Positions 4,730 to 36,725 are shown, counted from the first letter of the stretch. The stretch: DNA of 64,000 nt from Candidatus Thorarchaeota archaeon (GCA_029855935.1 JAGSHN010000012.1:160001-224000); one strand, 5' to 3'. Notes: generated by a model from the sequence alone, not told the origin. Numbers and translations are program-made.

Positions 4730-5509
4730 ATGAGTGATGCTTTCCAGTCCGAAGTGTATGCCTCCATTGCCACACTGGACCAGCTCAAGCGTCTCTACGA
4801 CCTCGGCGATATCGATGTCCGCTTCTTCGAGCGTGAGTCGCGAGCATTGATCAACGAGGTTCAGCGTGGTCTCGAACAGATGAAGCGTCTTGGGCTGGAT
4901 GTGCAGGCCTTTCTGACAGACTGGAGCATACACCAGCGTTTTCCGGAGGCTGCGAATCTACTCGGACTGGTCCCTGCGCAGCCGGCAGGCCCGACGTGGA
5001 CGGCGGGCCAGTGGGCATCGAAAGAGGAGTTCTATGACTACCTAGGTCTGCTTGTTCTTGATGTGGCGACCAAACATTCCTCAAAGGGTCTGATCGGTCT
5101 GGCTGAGATGATAGTCGAGGTGCTCCGCAGCCTGCCTAATCCCCAGGTGGCCAAGTTCACTGACGTCATCGAGGCCGTCAACCGCGTTTCGGGGGCTGGA
5201 CTGATTCCCGGTATCCGTACGCTGAAGGGTGGTGTCAAGGTTGTCGAGCTCCGCCCCCTTGAGCTGAGACGTGATCAGGCCGATGTCATCAATCTCGCGG
5301 CGGGCAAGGGCTACGTTTCTCTTGAAGAGGTGATGATGAACCTCGGTTGGTCCGAGGATCACGCACGACGCGTCCTGGCCAGTCTTGTAGAAGCCGGGAT
5401 AGCGGTCGTGAGCCTGAAGTATAGCACAGGTGGCAGATACTATTTCCCCGGGCTCCGTCCGATGGAACAGGATGGTGGCCCGGACGGCAGTCCTACAGTC
5501 TCAGAGTGA
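4730..5509 (+). CDS. Vps28-N-like / ESCRT-II Vps22-Vps36 (EAP30) winged-helix fusion protein
   Basis: C-terminal EEFYDYLG..V..V...GLI.L...DV..AV..V....PLEL..DQ..V..LA..KGYVS..E....LGW...A...L..LV..G.A........YYFPGL matches EAP30/Vps22. The N-terminal ~80 aa resemble the Vps28 N-domain. Confidence 0.85.
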   Translation: MSDAFQSEVYASIATLDQLKRLYDLGDIDVRFFERESRALINEVQRGLEQMKRLGLDVQAFLTDWSIHQRFPEAANLLGLVPAQPAGPTWTAGQWASKEEFYDYLGLLVLDVATKHSSKGLIGLAEMIVEVLRSLPNPQVAKFTDVIEAVNRVSGAGLIPGIRTLKGGVKVVELRPLELRRDQADVINLAAGKGYVSLEEVMMNLGWSEDHARRVLASLVEAGIAVVSLKYSTGGRYYFPGLRPMEQDGGPDGSPTVSE

Positions 5510-6179
5510 TGGCATGGCGTTTCTTGTCAAGCCACTCGGCCAGTCCGTCCTCCACCAGGATTTGGAGAGCCCTGTGCAGCTCCTCCTCGGGCAGAGATGA
5601 GAAGGTTTCCTCTGGACACTGAATGACAAGGGTCTTGACATCAATCTGCCGTTCCCCTCGCCTCAGTGCCCATGCGTAGATGACCTCGGCCCACTCCTGC
5701 ACGGAGCGCCAGTATACCCTCAGCCTCCTCTTCTCCTCGTCCATCCACTCTGCGACTCCCTGCCCAACCAACCAGTCCCCAATCAGTCTGAATGCCTCAA
5801 TCTTTCCGTGAATCTCGCCGAACTCTCTCTCTATGATGAAATCGCCAAGCGAAACAACATGGGCACCCTGATGCCTCGCCCAGTCGAGCAGATACTCTCC
5901 CCACTCTGCTGTCCATCTTTCCCTTGCCGCGTCATTCTCTGGAACTGTATACATCCACACGGCGGCGCGCGAGCCACCCCATGGAGGCGGTGGTCCTCTC
6001 TCCCTCTGGGCCACGGTGACTGCCTGCGTCCGCACTCTCGCTGAATCCCTCGTCCTGTCGTGGCGTATCGCACCGGAGATTGGGAGCGGCTGACCTCTCG
6101 CTGTTTCCGTAGCTGGTACAGTGTCCCGCTGTTCCCCGGTTCGTTTCTCCCGCTGTTTCCGTTGTTCTCTCACAGCCAC
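5493..6179 (-). CDS. vps25: ESCRT-II subunit Vps25 homologue
   Basis: MYT.P....R..W...W...L..W, LV..G.AEW.D......V.WRS..EWA..IY.WA, F..L..E.L..AL..L...G.A: the tandem WH signature of Vps25. Gene lies immediately downstream of vps4. Confidence 0.88.
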   Translation of the reverse strand: MAVREQRKQREKRTGEQRDTVPATETARGQPLPISGAIRHDRTRDSARVRTQAVTVAQRERGPPPPWGGSRAAVWMYTVPENDAARERWTAEWGEYLLDWARHQGAHVVSLGDFIIEREFGEIHGKIEAFRLIGDWLVGQGVAEWMDEEKRRLRVYWRSVQEWAEVIYAWALRRGERQIDVKTLVIQCPEETFSSLPEEELHRALQILVEDGLAEWLDKKRHAITLRL

Positions 6180-6181
6180 GG

Positions 6182-7381
6182 CTACGGTGCCTCCGCCCAG
6201 CTGACGTACCTGCTTATGTCATTGGCTCTGATGGCTGGCCTCGTCAGGTCGATGGCGTACAGAAAGTCGTCCATACTCACAGGACGCAATACGGGGGTCA
6301 GACCATCACTCGAGAGCTGTCCGGTTCGCTGAAGTTCTCTGATCGGCTCCATTGCAGCCTCCCTGCATATCACGCTGATGTCCCTCCCGCTGTAGCCCTC
6401 GGTCAGGTCGGCAAGATCGCGGAAGCTCACATCTGCAGCGACTTCGACATCACGCATATGGACCCTGAAGATCATCTCCCGGGCATTCAGGTCCGGTAGA
6501 GGCACCAGTATCCGCTTCTCGAATCTGGACAGCAAGGCAAAGTCGAGTTCCCAAGGTAGATTTGTGGCCGCTATCACTGTGACTCGTTCTTCCGGTCTGC
6601 TGTTCAGGCCCTGGAGCTCGGTGAGGAGTTGAGTCTTCAATCGACGTTCTCCTCCGACATCGTCTGAGGAGCGCAGGCTACCGATGGAGTCTATCTCGTC
6701 GACGAAGATGATGGACGGCTGTCTCTCCCGGGCCATTGCGAAGAGAAGGTGGACGAGCCGCTCTGACTCCCCCAACCATTTGCTCACAATATTGGCTGCG
6801 GATACGTTGAAGAAGGTGGCGTTGATCTCTGCGGCTACCGCCTTGGCAATCATGGTCTTTCCGCAACCAGATGGACCATAGAGCAGGATGCCCCTCCACG
6901 GCTGTCTGGCCCGTCCTCGAAATAGCCCCGGATACCTCATTGGGACAATGACTGCGTCGTTGATTGCCTGTTTCGCCATCTCAAGACCCGCCACATCTGT
7001 GAGCCGGACGTTCGGTCTCTCCGTCACCATGGTGTCCTCAAGGGCCTCCATGAGATTGCGAGTTTCTGCAGAATCGGTTGCGAGTTCAGACCGTGGTGAG
7101 GCTGGCGAGACTGGCATGTCCGACGAGCTGGTGGGCCGTGGTCTCCGGGCGCGATGTTCGACAGTCACTCCCGACAGCTGCTTGACTCGCTGTATGCACT
7201 CCTCTGCGCGCCTGTAGTAGTAGTCTCTGACAGAGGGAATGCTTGTAGACCTAGACAGCTGCACGAGGACCCTGCTGGCCTGCAGATATGCCTGACAGGC
7301 CTCTCTTGCGAGGTTCTTCTGGTCCAGCTGTATGGCACGGCCGAGCAGCTCTCTCAGACCGCGGTCTATTCTGTCTGACAT
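6182..7381 (-). CDS. vps4: Vps4/CdvC AAA+ ATPase with N-terminal MIT domain
   Basis: MIT (RA..LD.....EA...Y), PNV...DVAGLE.AK, PWRGILLYGPSGCGKT, SKWLGESERLV, IIFVDEIDS, AATNLPWELD, RFEKRI.VPLPD, TEGYSG.DI. Confidence 0.95.
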   Translation of the reverse strand: MSDRIDRGLRELLGRAIQLDQKNLAREACQAYLQASRVLVQLSRSTSIPSVRDYYYRRAEECIQRVKQLSGVTVEHRARRPRPTSSSDMPVSPASPRSELATDSAETRNLMEALEDTMVTERPNVRLTDVAGLEMAKQAINDAVIVPMRYPGLFRGRARQPWRGILLYGPSGCGKTMIAKAVAAEINATFFNVSAANIVSKWLGESERLVHLLFAMARERQPSIIFVDEIDSIGSLRSSDDVGGERRLKTQLLTELQGLNSRPEERVTVIAATNLPWELDFALLSRFEKRILVPLPDLNAREMIFRVHMRDVEVAADVSFRDLADLTEGYSGRDISVICREAAMEPIRELQRTGQLSSDGLTPVLRPVSMDDFLYAIDLTRPAIRANDISRYVSWAEAP

Positions 7382-7464
7382 AGGTACCCTCTACTGGTGA
7401 GTCAGAGTGGGATTAAGAACCTCTGTGACTGCTCGGTATTACGTGCCTATGCGTTCCTACTTGT

Positions 7465-8814
7465 TCAGCCGGACGTGATCTGTGCCTGCTCTACTACGAT
7501 GGAGGGTGTGATTGCCTCAGAGGTCCTCCTCACATCCCCTCCGACGAGGATCACTCGTCTGAGCAGGTCGAGCATGTTTATTCCGATGAGAGTACTCTTC
7601 ACAGGGTACCGAATCTCTCCATTCTCGAAATAGTATCCCTCCATCACAAGTGCGCTGAGGTCGCCTGTCGTCATATTCGGTCTGTCGCCCGTGTCGCGAC
7701 AGAGTATACCGCGACCCACCTCTTCAACCAGATCCATCAGCCCGCCTCTTCCCGGTTGGACTATGAGATTACTTGGAGCAATCCTTGGAGGGCTGGAGTA
7801 GGAGGATCGGCTTGCGTGAGCGGTGTTCTCAACTTGATCCTTCTGTGCAGTGTACGAGTTGTGCAGTAGACTCTTTAGTACTCCCTGCTCAAGTAGCATT
7901 ATTCTCCTCGACGGAACCCCCTCTCCGTCGAACGGTCTTGAGCTGACCTCTCCAGGGCTCAGCGCATCATCTACTATAGTCAGGTGTTCAGAGGCTATCT
8001 GCTGTCCGAGGGCATCGGCGACGTACGACCGGCCGAACTGAACCTCCTCAGCGTTGACCGCTCCACCGAACCCGCCGCCAAGTACCGAGCCGACAGCTAT
8101 CGGCCCGAATACCACCGGCATCTTGTCGTTCTCAATTCTTCTGCCTCCGAGGTTTGCGATGACCGCAGCGGCCGCCTCTCTACCGACCTTCTCAGGGTCG
8201 AACTCGCGCAATGCTCGCGCCAGCTCATATTCAGAGCTCGATGTCTGTTCATCCTCTGTCTTGATGGTCGGAGCCGAGTAGATGTATCCGGTAGTCCCCT
8301 CGTAGTATGCCTCGATGCCCAACGAATTCACGATGCCAGCGCCCCCACGCGAGGTCCGCATCTGTGCCTCAATTGCATACTTGTAGTCTGACAAGCTCTC
8401 TTTGGTCGCGTCGACCATCCTTGTGACAATGTCGGCGGCCTCTTCGGAGCTGAGGTTGGCCATCGCCCGGTCGTAGAGTCTCTCAACAACTGGATATCCA
8501 CCGCTCGCCGAGGGGAGCGATCCAAAATCGGGGTCGGGGACAGAGACATGTGCGAGCGAGATGGCTCTCTCGACAGCGGCCCTGACGTCCTCCTCTCGGA
8601 TGGTCGTGACGTATGCAAAGCCGATTCTACTATCAATGACACACCTTATTCCACAGCCACTGTCACACCTCTCTGCAGCGCTCTTGATTGAGTTGTTCTC
8701 CACCTCAATTGTGAACGAGCGAGTGCTCGCCACAAAGGCCTCGGCCTGCTCGGCGCCTTGTCTCTCAGCGTGTCTGACCGCTATCTCAGCGATACCAAGT
8801 ATCTCTTCCCGCAC
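7465..8814 (-). CDS. pmbA: PmbA/TldE family protein (non-catalytic TldD partner)
   Basis: GA..AE.F, G.GIR, SRPFDGEGVP, L.E.GVL...LH..YTA, TGD.S. No HExxxH motif. GTG start at 8814 just after the tldD stop. Confidence 0.9.
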   Translation of the reverse strand: MREEILGIAEIAVRHAERQGAEQAEAFVASTRSFTIEVENNSIKSAAERCDSGCGIRCVIDSRIGFAYVTTIREEDVRAAVERAISLAHVSVPDPDFGSLPSASGGYPVVERLYDRAMANLSSEEAADIVTRMVDATKESLSDYKYAIEAQMRTSRGGAGIVNSLGIEAYYEGTTGYIYSAPTIKTEDEQTSSSEYELARALREFDPEKVGREAAAAVIANLGGRRIENDKMPVVFGPIAVGSVLGGGFGGAVNAEEVQFGRSYVADALGQQIASEHLTIVDDALSPGEVSSRPFDGEGVPSRRIMLLEQGVLKSLLHNSYTAQKDQVENTAHASRSSYSSPPRIAPSNLIVQPGRGGLMDLVEEVGRGILCRDTGDRPNMTTGDLSALVMEGYYFENGEIRYPVKSTLIGINMLDLLRRVILVGGDVRRTSEAITPSIVVEQAQITSG

Positions 8815-8816
8815 CT

Positions 8817-10202
8817 CTACATCCCTCCGACAGGAACTTCTGTGGCCCGTGCGTGTGGTCCACCGCTCATGTCCGGCACCCATTGACCATTCTTTCCGCA
8901 AGTACCTGCGTCAAGCTCGAAGTCCCTGCCCACCGCGTCTATCTTGGAGAGAACCTCCAGTATGAGACCTGACAGCGAAACATCCCTGACCATCTGGCCA
9001 ATCTCTCCCTTCTTGATCACGTATCCGTATTGGGCTTGAAACATGAAATGTCCCATAGAGGGGTTCGTGTAGCCGTAGTTGAATCTGCACAGGAGAAGGC
9101 CATGTCTGGTGTCCTCAATCAGCTCATCAACATCCCAGTCACCCGGCTCCATGAACGTGTTGCTCATCCTCGGGATGGGTACGTGTGCATAGGACTCAGC
9201 TCTGGCTGCGCCATTCGACTCCATCCCCAGCCTAGATGCCGTTTCGAGAGAGTGGAGTATCTCTGTCAAGATGCCGTCTTTGACAAGGATTCGCTTTCTC
9301 GTCTTTGTCCCTTCCCAGTCATATGGGTAGGATCCGCGGGCACAGTCCAGCGTGGGATCATCACTTATGTTGAGCCACTCTGGTCCGACACTCTGTCCGA
9401 GCTTGTCCTCAAGGACTGTTGTGTGCGCAGGCCAGCCATCGGCCTCACAGGCGTGTCCAAACGCCTCATGCACCATTACGCCGTTGAGGACCGGATCCAT
9501 CACGACATCGTAGACGCCTCCCCTTACAGCCACCGACGAGAGCAGGTCGACGGCGGTTCTTGCGGCTCTCTCTCCAACCGTCTGAGCGTCCTCTTCCATC
9601 ATCATCTCGAACCCGCCCTTTACTCCGACAGACCTGTAGGCACGCTGCCGATTCGCCCCCTCTCTTGCCGTTATTGACGATATGATGCGCGGGAGGGAGT
9701 TCTCAATATACACAGAGGTCCCAAGAGAATTGGCCACATAGAGCTCGCTCCACAGCTCCCCGTATACAGTCCTCGCATTGGAGACACGCTCGTCAAACTC
9801 ACGTGCCTGCATGTCAATCTGTTTGACAAACTCCATCTTCTCCTCCATCGGGACATCAGGGAAGGGGCGCCTGACGGAGATGAACTCCTTCGCCCTGAAA
9901 GTGGGGCCGTCGATCTCAAATCGTTCGGCAACAAGTGGACGGACAGCGAGAGCCAGCTTGGTAGCAGACTCGCCAACCCCTCGCATTCCCTCGGGTGTGA
10001 GTTCCGTCGTCTGAGCAAAGGCCCACGCCCCGTCGATGAACGCCCTCACTCCTGCGCCTCTGAGATGGGCGGACATCGACCTCCGAGTCACGCCATTGAC
10101 CATCTCTATAACGGTAGAGTGAGTGTTCTCAATTCTCACGTCAGCGAACGATGCTCCTGCGTCGAGTGCAGACTCTACGGCAATCTGGGCAAGGTCTTCC
10201 AT
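8817..10202 (-). CDS. tldD: TldD family metalloprotease
   Basis: GA.FADVR.E, G.GVRA...G.W.FA, HEAFGHACEAD, DDPT, YD.EG, PIPRMSNTF..PG, CGK.GQ.VP...GGPH. Confidence 0.93.
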   Translation of the reverse strand: MEDLAQIAVESALDAGASFADVRIENTHSTVIEMVNGVTRRSMSAHLRGAGVRAFIDGAWAFAQTTELTPEGMRGVGESATKLALAVRPLVAERFEIDGPTFRAKEFISVRRPFPDVPMEEKMEFVKQIDMQAREFDERVSNARTVYGELWSELYVANSLGTSVYIENSLPRIISSITAREGANRQRAYRSVGVKGGFEMMMEEDAQTVGERAARTAVDLLSSVAVRGGVYDVVMDPVLNGVMVHEAFGHACEADGWPAHTTVLEDKLGQSVGPEWLNISDDPTLDCARGSYPYDWEGTKTRKRILVKDGILTEILHSLETASRLGMESNGAARAESYAHVPIPRMSNTFMEPGDWDVDELIEDTRHGLLLCRFNYGYTNPSMGHFMFQAQYGYVIKKGEIGQMVRDVSLSGLILEVLSKIDAVGRDFELDAGTCGKNGQWVPDMSGGPHARATEVPVGGM

Positions 10203-10340
10203 CAGAATCACTAGCCGGTCGCATACACCGCTCGTTATAATTGCTTTGAAGAGTGAGTGGCGGTCGGTGTAACCTTGGTGATACACAGCTCTTTCTTATC
10301 CCATCACTGAGTCGAGACCAAGGCACACGGAGGCACACAG

Positions 10341-11909
10341 TTGAGTCAAGAATCCGCGCGCGACTCTTGCCAGGTCTGCAGAAGGTCTAACGGCGTCTAC
10401 TTCTGTGAGGACTGCGGTGCTGTTCTGTGTGCTGACTGTGTTGAAACGGTCACAAGCGACTTCTACTTCTGTGGCGACTGCCACTCCCAGATCCCGTCCT
10501 CGGAGACCGACAATCATCCGCAGAAGTGTCCCGAGTGTGGCTCCGAAGAGATTCGTACGGGGCGCCGGGAAGAGGAACGATGCCCCCGGTGTCACTCGAC
10601 AAGGCTTGTGCTCGTGTCGGAAAAGCGACGTACTCTCGCTCAGGACCTGCGTCAGGCAATCAATGTTCTCCAGTACGGACACTCAAGATTTCACGAGCTC
10701 TCTAGACGTCTTACTCGGATTGTCGAGACTCTGGTGTCACTACGGATGGCAAAGTTCGTCCACTACCACTGGCTTGAGCGCCACTTGGAGGAATTGCAGG
10801 AGGAGGTCCCTGCACTCAGGAACCGAATAGTCAACCGGGCCGAGATGGTGGCGCGCCAGATGGCTGCGGAAACATCAGGGATAATGCACGACCCTCTATG
10901 GACGGCTGACCAGTTCCCGTTCATATCAGGTGTGGTGAACAGGCTGCGCGAGCTTGGACGGGAGTACAAGGAGCGAGTCGATGAGACCCTCGCTGGTGCA
11001 TTCCGTCGTCTGGAGGAGATCAGCAAGACGATTGAGGGTCTCGAGTATTTCCGACGAGCCTTTGTGGCCTTTTCTAGCCTCGTCCCCCTTGAGGTCAATG
11101 AGCTGCCCGTCTGTGCACTGCCGGATATCCGCCTCACGGGGTCCGACTTTCTCAAGCACGACAAAGCCGCAGGAACGCTCTATCTGACCGACCGGCGAAT
11201 GGTCTTCATTGCCACCACTGGGACTATTCGAAAGAGGGAGTCCGTGGTCTTTGACTTTCCTCTGCCGTATCTGTCGGGGATTGAGGAGGACGGCAGACGG
11301 AAGAAGCGTCTTGTTCTGAGGATGCAACAAGGCGACATCAGGATAGTCTGTCCTGAGGGAACACGACGTGTGATGAGCGACTACATGGAGATTGCTCGCA
11401 GCTTTGCCAAGTATGCACAGACCAATCTTCAGCGTACGAGGCAGCTGCAGCGGTTCAGTTGTGCGCCTGATGAGGTGAGGATCCGTATATTGGATCTGAT
11501 TGATGACCTGCTCTCTCGAGAACGACGCAGAGCGATTGCCATGAGCGGTACGGGGGCGTACACTCGCTCTCCTCCTCCGGTCCACAGCTGGGGCTATCCG
11601 GAGACCTCGAATAGTCCTAGGGCCACATTCTCGGGGTCGCCATTCAGTCCGCAGGCCACAAGTCCAGATAGTCGCTACAGCTTGGACGGCTCGTATGTGA
11701 GAACGGCTGCGACTTCGCCCCCGCGCGGTGTCTACTCGCAACACTATGGCGACGGGGACATGACTGCACTACTCAATCACGAGATCCAAGAGACAATACG
11801 TGCACTCAGACGGGGTCGACTTCCTCCTGACGAGTTTGTTCGGCGTTATCGTGACCTGATGCGGAGTTCATTTGAGATGGAGCGACGCTTCTACGAAAGG
11901 GTTCGGTAG
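10341..11909 (+). CDS. multidomain ESCRT-I-like protein: 12-Cys zinc module, coiled coil, GRAM/GLUE-like PH domain, Pro/Ser linker, steadiness box
   Basis: Six CxxC pairs in aa 10-84; helical aa 95-240; LEVNE..AGTLYLTDRRMVF..FPL..L..IEE at aa 250-352; C-terminal IRALRRGRLPPDEFVRRYRDLMRSSF. Located inside the ESCRT cluster. Confidence 0.75.
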   Translation: MSQESARDSCQVCRRSNGVYFCEDCGAVLCADCVETVTSDFYFCGDCHSQIPSSETDNHPQKCPECGSEEIRTGRREEERCPRCHSTRLVLVSEKRRTLAQDLRQAINVLQYGHSRFHELSRRLTRIVETLVSLRMAKFVHYHWLERHLEELQEEVPALRNRIVNRAEMVARQMAAETSGIMHDPLWTADQFPFISGVVNRLRELGREYKERVDETLAGAFRRLEEISKTIEGLEYFRRAFVAFSSLVPLEVNELPVCALPDIRLTGSDFLKHDKAAGTLYLTDRRMVFIATTGTIRKRESVVFDFPLPYLSGIEEDGRRKKRLVLRMQQGDIRIVCPEGTRRVMSDYMEIARSFAKYAQTNLQRTRQLQRFSCAPDEVRIRILDLIDDLLSRERRRAIAMSGTGAYTRSPPPVHSWGYPETSNSPRATFSGSPFSPQATSPDSRYSLDGSYVRTAATSPPRGVYSQHYGDGDMTALLNHEIQETIRALRRGRLPPDEFVRRYRDLMRSSFEMERRFYERVR

Positions 11910-11957
11910 GCTCCGCCAGAACCCCTGCGTGAAACTATGAGGCGTGCACGGACTGTG

Positions 11958-11987
11958 GGACATTGAGCGTGAGGACATTGAGCGTGA
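11958..11987. repeat. 15-bp perfect tandem direct repeat
   Basis: ggacattgagcgtga x2 (11958-11972 and 11973-11987), followed by a degenerate gtctgagcgga. Confidence 0.85.
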
Positions 11988-12000
11988 GTCTGAGCGGAGT

Positions 12001-12633
12001 CTAGAGGCCAAGCCTCCTCTCAAGCGCCTGAATCTCTTCTGCCAGTCTGTCGGGTGGTGCCTTGGTGGATGGAGTGGTCCCCCTACGGCCGCCACTCTCC
12101 ACAACCTCGGAATCTATCTCCGCCATCACGTCTGCCAGCTCCTCAGGAGCAATTCTGCCATCCGTGGCTCCGTGGAGGGTCTCCTCGAAGATGCCGTTCT
12201 CAATCTCGAACTGCTCGAGTCTTCGTGCCACCTCGTCGAGATTCTGAATGACCCTCTTGGCACTGATCTCTTCTCCGAGGATACCAAAGATTGCTGCCAC
12301 CCTCTCCATGCCTATGTTGACTCTTGCTGTTATCCTCGCTCGCTTGATGTAGGACGCAATACGTAGAAGAGAGAACCGGACACGCTCGATCTTGAGAATA
12401 TCACGATGTGTCCGCAGGACCTCCCCGGCATAGAGTATGCAGGCCTCGTTCTGCCCGTTTCTGCGAGCTGTCACTGCCCGCCTCTTGGCATCGGCAGCCA
12501 GTTTCTCCAGATGGTTGCGCTCACGTTCGAGCTCTCTGGCCATCACCTGAAGACCGCTGACAATCTCCGTGACATCTGGCTTTTTTCTGCCCCATATGGC
12601 GGCCCGCTTCAACAGACGCAATAGTTTCACCAC
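12001..12633 (-). CDS. ESCRT-III (Snf7 family), Vps2/24/46-like
   Basis: Basic N-terminal helix, RELERER..LE, A.R.G..EA...YA.E.LR, acidic C-terminal half, terminal EEIQALERRLGL MIM1-like helix. Confidence 0.88.
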   Translation of the reverse strand: MVKLLRLLKRAAIWGRKKPDVTEIVSGLQVMARELERERNHLEKLAADAKRRAVTARRNGQNEACILYAGEVLRTHRDILKIERVRFSLLRIASYIKRARITARVNIGMERVAAIFGILGEEISAKRVIQNLDEVARRLEQFEIENGIFEETLHGATDGRIAPEELADVMAEIDSEVVESGGRRGTTPSTKAPPDRLAEEIQALERRLGL

Positions 12634-12717
12634 TGCTGGTATCCTGTCTCAGGAGTGGGTCAAGGAGGCCTTGTATAAACCCTAGTAGGACGCTGGGCAT
12701 ACGTGGCGCTACAGCTC

Positions 12718-21020: not shown

Positions 21021-21827
21021 TCAGTGCACCTGCCAGAATGTCCACATCAGGACAGTCATACATGCCAGCGCCATCACGAAGGCCCACAGTGTGGAGGTAT
21101 TGTGCGCCTCTCTGATGCCAAATATCAGCAGGAACCCCACCCAGGCAAATGACGCGGCCGTCATATAGTCGAGAATGGTCCAATATGGTGCGTCATAGAT
21201 TGCAGTCACAAGCGCTACGAGATTGGTGGTCCCGGTCAGGTCAAATGGGGCCGCCATAACGGCGACGATGGCGAGACCGACCAGTCGTACCAAGACAATG
21301 GGCATGATGCTGTACCCGACAATGGACATAGTCTTCAGCCTGTTTCCAACGCCGCCCATTATCTTGAAGGCCAGATGTGCAAATGCGCTGCCAAGGATGA
21401 AGTAGACAATCCCCATCATGATATTGCCGATGAGCAGCCCGAGTGCACCGAGGTAGAATGTGGCGCCCAGGTCCGTGTTCAAGATGGAGGTCTGCACTGG
21501 TGTCCCGTCGATAATGACTGTGGTCGTGAACTTGGACGAGATGAGCAGGAAGTAGCCTGTCACAATCAGCGCGTTGATCAATATCAACAGTACCGGCCCT
21601 GCTGTGTCCGGTCGCCGTCCTATGTCGCGAAAGGTGGGGCCCGGCCTCCTGATGGTCCCCCACAGTCGCTCTACGGGGCTCAGGAATCGCACATCGGGCG
21701 ACTCAGGCCTCTTCAGCAACGGTAGGAGTCTCTCAAGGGTCTCCTCCCCTATCTCCTCTTTGCACACCGGACAGGTTGTTGCATCTGACGGTACTGGACT
21801 ATCACAGAACGGGCAACGTCGGACCAT
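21021..21827 (-). CDS. zinc-ribbon + Yip1 domain membrane protein
   Basis: CPFC-x10-CPVC, then ...P..TF..I, H...K..GG.G.....T.S..GYS..P, GI..AH..S...A; about 5 TMs. Confidence 0.8.
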   Translation of the reverse strand: MVRRCPFCDSPVPSDATTCPVCKEEIGEETLERLLPLLKRPESPDVRFLSPVERLWGTIRRPGPTFRDIGRRPDTAGPVLLILINALIVTGYFLLISSKFTTTVIIDGTPVQTSILNTDLGATFYLGALGLLIGNIMMGIVYFILGSAFAHLAFKIMGGVGNRLKTMSIVGYSIMPIVLVRLVGLAIVAVMAAPFDLTGTTNLVALVTAIYDAPYWTILDYMTAASFAWVGFLLIFGIREAHNTSTLWAFVMALACMTVLMWTFWQVH

Positions 21828-34874: not shown

Positions 34875-36725
34875 TCACTGGTGTTTCTTGTCTACTCTCT
34901 TTCTCGACTCGATGACCTCTCTCAGCTGTGGCACGTCTGCCCCAATCACTTTCTCATGTTCCTGAAGCGCCATTGTGGCGATGAGGTAGTCGGAACGCTG
35001 GATTGGCACAAGAACGGCTAGGATTGCCCGCATGTACTCATCGCCCGTCAACACCACAATCTTCTGCATCTCGTTCACGATGGACTCAAGCGCATCGTCG
35101 TTGTGTGGGGAGTCCCTACACGTGAGGACGAACATAAGCAGGAGGTCCTTGAACGCCTCCTTGAGCTCTCCCATCTGCTTGAAGTTCTGCGAGGACTCAT
35201 TGAGCAGTTCAACAGCGTGTCTCCTGAGATGGTCCTCGTTGGTCTTCAGAGCCTCGTGTGCGGCAGTGCGTTTCCAGACTGCGGCAAGCGGTATAATCCC
35301 TTCCCTCTCATATCCCCTAGCCACGTACTCAGCCTTCTTGCTTGCTATCCAGTGAAATCCTGACCATCTGTCTATGTCGGCCATCAGTCTGGCACACTCT
35401 GCAGCCTTGCTGTAGTATCGTGAACTGTTCTCGGTGTCACCGTTCTCCTGAGTCATCTCGGCCAGCTGAATGTATATCTCCAAGGCCTCCTCAAGGACAG
35501 CATTGGCCCGCTCTATTTCCCCCATCTCGTAGAGCACCTCTGCTGCCTCCTTGAGCCGCATTGCCTGCATCTCATGTTCCTGCTTCTTCTCGTGCTGCTC
35601 TGCGCGCTCAAGGTAGTAGCTGATCACATGGTCGTAGAGCTCCTGTGCGTCCTTGTTGGCCCCCCATTTCTTCAGTGACATTGCCTCGTACTGCAGGTAT
35701 TTGTAACGGGAGTCATCGTCGCCGTCCTTCTTTGCCCTCTCGGCCAATTGATGGAACATCTCCGCAGCCCGTTTGTAGGCCCACTTGGCCTTTACTGGAC
35801 TACCAGCCTCGGTGAACATCTCTCCCGCCTTGACAAGCAATGGTGCCACGACCTCGGGCGTGCCAGTCATCTGCATATACGCCTCTGAGGCCTTCAGCAT
35901 AGCCTTCCTTCGGGCTGTCGTGAGGCGTTCTCTCTTGTATAGCTCCTGCGCCGCATCGTAAGTGTTTCCAGCCTTCTCGAAGTTACCTGCACGCTCGTAT
36001 AGCTCGCCAGCTCTCATCAACAGCTTGACGGCCTCGGCAAGATCGCCCAGCATCTGGAGAATCTGTGCGGCATCGGCCAGAGCACTTGCTGCCTCACTGT
36101 GGTCTTGCCTTGCCTCGGCCTCTGCAGCCCAGCGTTTCGCTATGTCTGTGGCACGCCTGTAGATTCTTCGACCAAGCTCCTCATCACCAGATGAATAATA
36201 GATGCGGCCGACCTTCTTGAGCAGCGCCACAGTCTCTCCAAGTTCCCCCTTCATCTCTCTCTCATCGGCCTCATTCTCAAGGGCATCGGCCGCCTTGACG
36301 GCCAGCTCTTGCCGAGCCTCGGGGCTCTCAGCGAAGTCCGCGGCCCTAAAGTAGAACTCCGCAGCCTTTCTGTGGTCGGCTGCCTCTTCTGCAATCTCGC
36401 CTGCGAGTCTGTTTATCCGTGCAATCTCTCTCCGTGTTGTCGGGTCCTGCCCCGCGCGGAGGAGCATCAACGTTGCCTTGTCCAGCGCCTCGTAGCATTC
36501 GTCGGCCATGTAGGCCTGTCTGTACGCCTGCGCCGCCTCCTCGTAGATCTTTGCAGCCTGCCTGAGCTTATCGTGTGAGACGAGGACATCGGCGGCCTTC
36601 TTGAGCAGTTTTGCACCTGTCTTGTTGTCGCCCTGCTTGACCTTCTTTCTGGCCGCTCTGAGGACTTCTTGGAGTGTCGTCAAAGTCTTGTTCTCCCACT
36701 TGACTAAACGTTTCGACCTGCTCAC
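34875..36725 (-). CDS. alpha-SNAP-like / TPR-like helical solenoid protein
   Basis: Repeated AA..Y..AA..Y units (AAKIYEEAAQAY, AAEFYFRAA, AGELYERAGNFEKAGNTYDAA) over about 600 aa. Confidence 0.7.
   Translation of the reverse strand: MSRSKRLVKWENKTLTTLQEVLRAARKKVKQGDNKTGAKLLKKAADVLVSHDKLRQAAKIYEEAAQAYRQAYMADECYEALDKATLMLLRAGQDPTTRREIARINRLAGEIAEEAADHRKAAEFYFRAADFAESPEARQELAVKAADALENEADEREMKGELGETVALLKKVGRIYYSSGDEELGRRIYRRATDIAKRWAAEAEARQDHSEAASALADAAQILQMLGDLAEAVKLLMRAGELYERAGNFEKAGNTYDAAQELYKRERLTTARRKAMLKASEAYMQMTGTPEVVAPLLVKAGEMFTEAGSPVKAKWAYKRAAEMFHQLAERAKKDGDDDSRYKYLQYEAMSLKKWGANKDAQELYDHVISYYLERAEQHEKKQEHEMQAMRLKEAAEVLYEMGEIERANAVLEEALEIYIQLAEMTQENGDTENSSRYYSKAAECARLMADIDRWSGFHWIASKKAEYVARGYEREGIIPLAAVWKRTAAHEALKTNEDHLRRHAVELLNESSQNFKQMGELKEAFKDLLLMFVLTCRDSPHNDDALESIVNEMQKIVVLTGDEYMRAILAVLVPIQRSDYLIATMALQEHEKVIGADVPQLREVIESRKRVDKKHQ

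Follow-up and report, generated by a model that had tools for sequence, protein, structure and literature searches.

Gene content of the locus

The genes described here lie at positions 4730-12633 of a 64,000-nucleotide stretch of DNA (hereafter the window; C21:160001-224000) from a Candidatus Thorarchaeota archaeon (accession number GCA_029855935.1), whose assembly of 2.97 Mb in 32 contigs is 97.3 % complete; homologues of the window's proteins are mostly named Candidatus Thorarchaeota as well. [quoted passage not shown] As to the identity of its genes, we are nearly certain that the region represents the ESCRT locus conserved in Thorarchaeia (Asgard archaea). The locus is far beyond chance, since each of the 26 other genomes of the family has the 522-aa protein as well as the Vps22 fusion described below, and 5/5 relatives have the gene set. 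Two of its products, i.e. Vps22 and the 522-aa protein, carry helical hairpins that are predicted to pair, which would tie an ESCRT-I-like adaptor directly to ESCRT-II. The features are as follows:

4730-5509, + strand: Vps22 (EAP30), ESCRT-II subunit (Pfam EAP30, Foldseek, AlphaFold2)
4730-4984, + strand: Vps28-N-like hairpin of Vps22, aa 1-85, predicted docking site of the steadiness box (profile A4, BLASTP, AlphaFold2)
5021-5458, + strand: helix and two winged-helix domains of Vps22 (Pfam, AlphaFold2, Foldseek)
5493-6179, - strand: Vps25 (ESCRT-II) with an N-terminal extension of ~75 aa (Pfam ESCRT-II)
6182-7381, - strand: Vps4 AAA+ ATPase (Pfam)
7465-8901 and 8817-10286, - strand: TldD/PmbA metallopeptidase pair (Pfam PmbA_TldD)
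10341-11909, + strand: Znr_CC_PH_SB protein, 522 aa, candidate ESCRT-I-like membrane adaptor (homologues, AlphaFold2)
10341-10613, + strand: three zinc ribbons of the 522-aa protein (six CxxC pairs, AlphaFold2)
10614-11081, + strand: its long helical (coiled-coil-like) region, aa 92-247 (AlphaFold2)
11088-11456, + strand: its GRAM/GLUE-type PH domain, aa 250-372 (VIA-align, Foldseek)
11739-11903, + strand: its Vps23-type steadiness-box hairpin, aa 467-521 (profile A3, AlphaFold2)
12001-12633, - strand: ESCRT-III of the Vps2/24/46 class, ESCRT-IIIA (Pfam Snf7, PDB matches)
7382-12717: inverted block of four genes, i.e. the TldD/PmbA pair, Znr_CC_PH_SB and ESCRT-IIIA (comparison with five relatives)

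The five genes named in a first-pass annotation of this DNA were all recovered at the positions given there; the two TldD/PmbA genes inside the interval (7465-10286, - strand) were absent from it.

A Vps28-type hairpin at the N-terminus of Vps22

The Vps22 gene begins with the ATG at 4730, which is also the start of the database protein P0104, and its orthologues in other Thorarchaeia are around 60-69 % identical to the window copy. The tandem winged-helix domains of ESCRT-II Vps22/EAP30 are present according to both Pfam and Foldseek, the whole protein being structurally closest to human and yeast Vps22 (best match, human 3cuq_A, E 6.8e-9). The Pfam EAP30 match (E 1.1e-9) covers profile positions 58-217 only, leaving positions 1-57, i.e. 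the native N-terminal helical part, unmatched, whereas one non-thorarchaeal Asgard Vps22 matches over positions 2-218. In the AlphaFold2 model [mean predicted local distance difference test (pLDDT) score 82], short helices and a flexible linker separate an N-terminal hairpin (helices 2-24 and 30-53, pLDDT 86-97) from a helix and two winged helices.

When a profile of aa 1-80 (profile A4) was compared with the PDB, the N-terminal head of yeast Vps28 accounted for three of the four best matches (E 0.027-0.032), with another Vps28 chain at rank five (E 0.055), and Pfam VPS28 gave a weak N-terminal match over aa 9-71 (E 0.029). Judging by sequence, comparisons within the Asgard archaea are stronger evidence than these yeast matches, i.e. 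BLASTP aligns the start of Vps22 with aa 11-94 of a 202-aa, free-standing Vps28 from another Asgard family at 32 % identity (E 3e-15), and the Vps22 orthologue of a sister family in the same order lies above the Pfam VPS28 threshold (26.9 bits). Vps22 thus has the N-terminal head hairpin of ESCRT-I Vps28 at its own N-terminus, in place of the usual N-terminal helices.

Phyletic counts were made on 151 sampled Asgard genomes, with the thorarchaeal family represented by 26 genomes other than the one studied here. A match to the full Vps22 fusion in a single frame was found in all 26 family genomes and in the one genome of the sister family (1/1), and in this order only; in other Asgard families the match to thorarchaeal Vps22 begins only at about position 35-110. 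The sister-family orthologue (L045:1607-2404, + strand) passes both VPS28 and EAP30, with Vps25 and Vps4 coming next, an arrangement also found in the window.

Vps22 and Vps25 are encoded once each in the genome, and a tblastn search of it found no counterpart of a ~780-aa EAP30-like paralogue that occurs in many relatives. In a genome of the same genus, a protein of this kind (L043:1623-3962, + strand) combines a C-terminal EAP30-like winged-helix pair (E 2e-5) with an Ig-like CarboxypepD_reg domain; such proteins of ~780-850 aa are encoded by many genomes of the family.

The 522-aa protein is a Znr_CC_PH_SB family member

The 522-aa protein has 98 homologues, mostly named Thorarchaeota (E 1e-93 to 1e-163), the window copy being only 40-51 % identical to the other thorarchaeal members. 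It is a member of the Znr_CC_PH_SB family (asCOG cog.011556), all features of which are present, i.e. zinc ribbons, a helical region followed by a pleckstrin homology (PH) domain, and a C-terminal steadiness box (SB). According to Makarova et al. (2024, mBio; PMC10936438), who also write Znr_PH_CC_SB, the family is absent from eukaryotes, was probably ancestral in Asgard archaea and is a likely ESCRT-I component, with membrane association expected via the PH domain. The two-hybrid clones of Hatano et al. (2022; PMC9192718) comprised orthologues of five proteins of the locus, with ThorAB25_08990 'SB' corresponding to the 522-aa protein, alongside 09000 ESCRT-IIIA, 09010 Vps4, 09020 Vps25 and 09030 Vps22, and the printed start of the first agrees almost letter for letter with one row (P0066) of our family alignment A1.

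The AlphaFold2 model, built from 57 homologues (mean pLDDT 81), shows beta ribbons over aa 1-91, where six CxxC pairs (aa 10-84) make up three zinc ribbons with weak Pfam matches to B-box and DZR. These are followed by helices at 92-108, 111-137, 142-177 and 189-247, a beta sandwich with a capping helix (aa 256-371), a further helix (aa 376-404), a disordered linker (aa 406-466) and a C-terminal hairpin (helices 467-490 and 496-521, pLDDT 84-96). No winged-helix domain was seen in this model.

The beta sandwich was called GLUE in the first-pass annotation, of which the GRAM-type PH fold stands. By VIA-align, it resembles the GRAM-PH domain of MTMR2 (Z 12.4), Lam6 (Z 11.8) and the GLUE domain of human EAP45, i.e. 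Vps36 (2hth_B; Z 11.2, 20 % identity), and by Foldseek the mouse EAP45 GLUE domain (2dx5_A; TM score 0.64, 22 % identity). Since the MTMR2, Lam6 and EAP45 matches are tied, 'GLUE-like' is a fair but not an exclusive description, and GLUE specifically is inseparable from other GRAM-type PH domains. K275 and R286, in the first two PH strands, are invariant in the family alignment. Ubiquitin binding cannot be a role of this domain in the thorarchaeal lineage. A DH-PH reading of the helical region together with the PH domain was rejected; the many Foldseek matches to DH-PH proteins (TM scores 0.2-0.3, root-mean-square deviation ~20 Å) involve the PH part only.

A profile of the C-terminal hairpin (profile A3) matched the C-terminus of yeast Vps23 in three PDB entries (2p22_A, E 0.005; 2f66_A, E 0.013; 2caz_A, E 0.045); one repeat protein outranks these, via short motif matches only, and Pfam Vps23_core matches the 522-aa protein weakly (E 0.1). 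The two-polypeptide architecture proposed in the first-pass annotation, i.e. Vps28N-Vps22 and Zn-CC-PH-SB, is borne out by the profiles, AlphaFold2, Foldseek and BLASTP.

Probable loss of the ubiquitin branch in Thorarchaeia

The whole assembly gave no match to ubiquitin (PF00240), UEV (PF05743) or E2 (PF00179). The claim that the 64-kb window lacks ubiquitin, E1, E2, UEV and JAB genes holds as well; the single E1 of ThiF type, both of the weak JAB matches and all three beta-grasp proteins of the ThiS/MoaD type are located on other contigs. Among the sampled Asgard genomes, ubiquitin was found in 107/151, UEV in 46/151 and VPS28 in 103/151, while each of the three was found in 0/26 genomes of the thorarchaeal family; the Znr_CC_PH_SB protein was found in 98/151 and 26/26, respectively. 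The Vps28 C-terminal four-helix bundle that contacts ESCRT-II gave no convincing PF03997 match in the genome, and none in the 26 family genomes. Thus, the absence of the Vps28 C-terminal domain, UEV and ubiquitin, as proposed before, extends to the genome and the family. Likewise, a search of all six-frame ORFs of the genome with hidden Markov models of the SB and Vps28-N hairpins for a third, Vps37-like hairpin retrieved no gene beyond the two already described; the strongest remaining matches had E values of 0.02-0.2.

The best PF03997 match in the search for a stand-alone Vps28 (C21:327533-328054; E 0.0013, 19 bits) belongs to a highly charged coiled-coil protein of 444 aa and was judged spurious. 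It matches along most of the VPS28 profile and lies on the same contig as the window and, with an assembly in 32 contigs that is 97.3 % complete, could be taken to mean that a canonical ubiquitin/UEV-Vps23/Vps28 set exists and was missed, either in sequence gaps or due to divergence. We consider this hardly credible: the same searches found no such set in 26/26 family genomes yet detected ubiquitin and VPS28 in 107/151 and 103/151 Asgard genomes, respectively, the weak match sits in a highly charged coiled coil, and Hatano et al. (2022) came to the same conclusion on 30 thorarchaeal genomes. Considering that the lineage is devoid of eukaryote-type ubiquitin, UEV-Vps23, E2 and full Vps28, its ESCRT initiation is most likely ubiquitin-independent.

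The Znr_CC_PH_SB protein was found in nearly all members of seven ubiquitin-bearing Asgard families. In one genome of another Asgard family, that of the 202-aa Vps28 mentioned above, a single region (L038:14766-19877) carries E1, E2, ubiquitin and RING genes on one strand and UEV-Vps23, Vps28, a 95-aa ORF and Vps22 on the other; the Znr_CC_PH_SB and Vps4 genes lie ~12 kb from this cluster, and Vps22 there matches the full EAP30 profile. This co-occurrence suggests that the adaptor is an old Asgard component which stood beside the ubiquitin branch and was kept by Thorarchaeia after that branch was lost. Since the same adaptor in other Asgard families neighbours a full E1-E2-ubiquitin-RING/UEV-Vps23/Vps28/Vps22 cluster, the lack of the ubiquitin branch in Thorarchaeia most likely arose by loss. 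The notion that the Znr_CC_PH_SB protein substitutes for ubiquitin recognition does not fit, as many other Asgard families have this protein alongside ubiquitin, UEV-Vps23 and Vps28.

Predicted docking of the adaptor on ESCRT-II

Complex prediction was performed with the two hairpin alignments as input, taking the median of three runs alongside three controls. The model of the SB hairpin with the Vps28-N hairpin reached an interface score (ipSAE) of 0.84, versus 0.01 for the best of the three controls, with at least 95 % of the contacts common between runs and a partner pLDDT of at least 74. Of 80 solved complexes, 58 attained the same mark, as did 2 of 110 mismatched pairs; these figures hold only roughly here because our own alignments were used as input. 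The residues at the predicted interface are invariant or near-invariant in the respective protein family, i.e. A11, A14, T15, E8, S12, Q18 and L19 of Vps22 and R490, E497, Y503, M507, R508 and S510 of the adaptor. The model supports, but does not show, binding of the SB hairpin to the Vps28-N hairpin of Vps22; the pairing anticipated by the first-pass annotation has thus been strengthened in silico, and in silico only.

On balance, we favour as probable, with considerable reserve, a mechanism in which the SB of the adaptor docks on the Vps22 hairpin and links an ESCRT-I-like adaptor directly to ESCRT-II, independently of ubiquitin. The Znr_CC_PH_SB protein would be the sole ESCRT-I-like subunit, whose PH domain, and perhaps zinc ribbons, would bind membrane or cargo. 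Packing of its SB hairpin on the Vps28-N hairpin of Vps22 would, as modelled, tie it to ESCRT-II in a way that dispenses with the Vps28 C-terminal domain. By analogy with eukaryotic ESCRT and Asgard two-hybrid data, Vps22 would bind Vps25, Vps25 would recruit ESCRT-IIIB encoded on another contig, ESCRT-IIIA would join next and Vps4 would recycle the polymer.

Several points weigh against this mechanism. As the yeast Vps23:Vps28 head has been solved, the high score may reflect likeness to, or memory of, that structure instead of binding, and both hairpins resemble their eukaryotic counterparts only weakly in sequence (E 0.005-0.05). The SB:Vps22 contact is a predicted one, supported by the model and by conservation, and the ligand of the PH domain is putative. 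Three beta-grasp proteins of the ThiS/MoaD type and one ThiF-type E1 are retained in the genome, so that a prokaryote-type modifier is possible, and the hairpin could serve dimerisation instead, given that Hatano et al. (2022) report that thorarchaeal Vps22 interacts with itself in the two-hybrid assay; an SB-Vps22 pair is not stated in the text of that paper, figures aside.

In eukaryotes, the N-terminal helical domain of EAP30 holds Vps22 and Vps36 together. The Vps28-N-like hairpin might act mainly in self-association of Vps22, replacing these helices, with the SB bound to a different partner or, as may be the case for CdvA-like hairpins, to itself. The reduced EAP30 match of thorarchaeal Vps22 (positions 58-217, compared with 2-218 in a non-thorarchaeal Asgard Vps22) and its two-hybrid self-interaction speak for this idea. 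We nevertheless judge it unlikely, considering that the heterodimer model scored 0.84 versus 0.01 for the controls, that its contacts lie on the conserved faces of the two hairpins, and that the hairpins of the eukaryotic ESCRT-I head pair heterotypically. Moreover, self-association and docking can both hold.

Less likely still is that a prokaryote-type tag of the SAMP/ThiS/MoaD kind continues to be read by the adaptor, through its GLUE-like PH domain or its zinc ribbons. Mammalian GLUE binds ubiquitin, according to the titles of PDB entries 2dx5 and 2hth, and the three ThiS-family genes and the ThiF-type E1 could provide such a tag; however, these genes are neither in the window nor near the locus, ThiS, MoaD and ThiF serve sulfur transfer in most prokaryotes, as the controls show, and the genome search turned up neither a UEV nor any other known reader.

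Returning to the docking mechanism, it is tempting to speculate that Thorarchaeia form a single initiation complex, constitutive and independent of ubiquitin, through a merger of ESCRT-I with ESCRT-II; it would consist of the adaptor with its SB on the Vps22 hairpin together with Vps25, the PH domain would read an archaeal lipid or untagged cargo, and the Vps22 fusion would stem from a deletion between adjacent vps28 and vps22 genes. The order Vps28, 95-aa ORF, Vps22 in L038 suggests how the thorarchaeal protein could have come about, with a deletion fusing the Vps28-N hairpin directly with the winged helices of Vps22; such a deletion would remove the Vps28 C-terminal domain and the N-terminal helices of Vps22 together. 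We regard this fuller scenario as possible, though somewhat short of an even chance.

Vps25 (Pfam ESCRT-II, PF05871; E 2.3e-14, aa 76-177) consists of a winged-helix pair preceded by an N-terminal extension of ~75 aa (5955-6179, - strand), whose frame is open in all relatives and which has two conserved motifs, i.e. a basic VRE(R/Q)K where it begins and P-x-W-G-x6-W-M-Y immediately ahead of the core. The latter may correspond to the proline motifs that eukaryotic Vps25 bears at its N-terminus. The Vps25 gene starts 2 nt past the stop codon of Vps4, which contains the Pfam domains MIT, AAA, AAA_lid_3 and Vps4_C. The ESCRT-III of the locus (Pfam Snf7, E 6e-9) belongs to the Vps2/24/46 class, with CHMP3 and CHMP2A as its best PDB matches. 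A whole-genome search for a Vps20/32/60-type ESCRT-III, as the first-pass annotation had suggested, found one on contig C27 (C27:58070-58750, - strand), closest to Heimdall ESCRT-IIIB and Vps20/32/60-like proteins. It stands alone among unrelated genes.

Gene order and neighbouring genes

In five other thorarchaeal genomes, one of the same genus, the order is aspartyl-tRNA synthetase, Vps22, Vps25, Vps4, ESCRT-III, Znr_CC_PH_SB, TldD_b, TldD_a, arginyl-tRNA synthetase and TFB. The same gene set and neighbours were found in 5/5 relatives examined, so that the synteny survey called for in the first-pass annotation shows the ESCRT genes and their surroundings to be kept. In the window, the four-gene block between Vps4 and the arginyl-tRNA synthetase gene (7382-12717, ~5.3 kb) is inverted compared with these relatives; inverted repeats were searched for at the block boundaries, and none was convincing. 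As far as gene order is concerned, the 're-wired' locus of the first-pass annotation therefore comes down to a local inversion.

The two TldD/PmbA genes (Pfam PmbA_TldD, E 1e-63 to 1e-64) adjoin the Znr_CC_PH_SB gene in the five thorarchaeal relatives, whereas they do not do so in the other Asgard families examined; they are syntenic passengers and no parts of the ESCRT machinery. Elsewhere, the window encodes a TPR protein of 616 aa (34875-36725, - strand) with a match to Pfam SNAP, i.e. soluble NSF attachment protein (E 1.1e-18), a eukaryote-like trafficking signature, as well as a Yip1-domain membrane protein (21021-21827, - strand; Pfam, E 3e-20).

Comparison with known systems

Published work from 2022 to 2024 already covers the architecture, the absence of ubiquitin throughout the lineage and the assignment to ESCRT-I; its local inversion aside, the locus is an ordinary member of a known system. 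Makarova et al. (2024) described both Znr_CC_PH_SB and Asgard Vps22 proteins fused to a steadiness box (cog.002769), and Hatano et al. (2022) found Thorarchaeota to be seemingly without ubiquitin and provided the two-hybrid data; in a 2023 preprint, Thorarchaeia are noted to be without UEV-Vps23, and cog.011556 serves as a steadiness-box family. The first-pass view of a distinct, novel complex is thereby superseded. In the parts of the cited Asgard ESCRT papers available to us, the text does not state SB docking on the Vps22 hairpin or a fusion by deletion explicitly; both ideas follow closely from the published work. The locus adds no new component, and its value lies in one more, rather divergent member and in in-silico support for one contact. 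Asgard ESCRT offers the best available view of how eukaryotic ubiquitin-ESCRT sorting was assembled, Thorarchaeia being a natural case of ESCRT-I/II/III/Vps4 running without ubiquitin, and the predicted hairpin docking bears on how ESCRT-II may be recruited without the Vps28 C-terminal bridge.

Compared with published Znr_CC_PH_SB proteins, including ThorAB25_08990, the 522-aa protein has the same domain order, ESCRT neighbourhood and lineage, and there is no difference of substance; the window copy is set apart by its 40-51 % identity to thorarchaeal members and the position of its gene in the inverted block. Similarly, SB-fused Asgard Vps22 (cog.002769), such as ThorAB25_09030, has an N-terminal steadiness-box/Vps28-N-like hairpin followed by two winged helices, to which our analysis adds the 32 % identity of the hairpin to the N-terminal half of free-standing Asgard Vps28 and the restriction of the full-length match to the thorarchaeal order in our sample.

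The ubiquitin-ESCRT clusters of other Asgard archaea (Odin, Heimdall and Loki, Hatano et al. 2022; L038) share Vps22, Vps25, Vps4, ESCRT-III and the Znr_CC_PH_SB protein with the thorarchaeal locus, but also carry E1, E2, ubiquitin, RING E3, UEV-Vps23 and full Vps28, none of which was found in the thorarchaeal family. With the eukaryotic ESCRT-I head (Vps23:Vps28:Vps37; 2F66, 2CAZ and 2P22), Thorarchaeia share the Vps23- and Vps28-type hairpins, which are predicted to pack; unlike in that head, the genome search found no Vps37-like hairpin, UEV or Vps28 C-terminal domain, and ESCRT-II carries the Vps28-N hairpin covalently, within Vps22. Finally, the thorarchaeal PH domain shares the GRAM-type PH fold with the GLUE domain of eukaryotic Vps36/EAP45 (20-23 % identity, tied with the GRAM domains of MTMR2 and Lam6) but, while GLUE is part of a winged-helix subunit of ESCRT-II, it resides on the ESCRT-I-like subunit.

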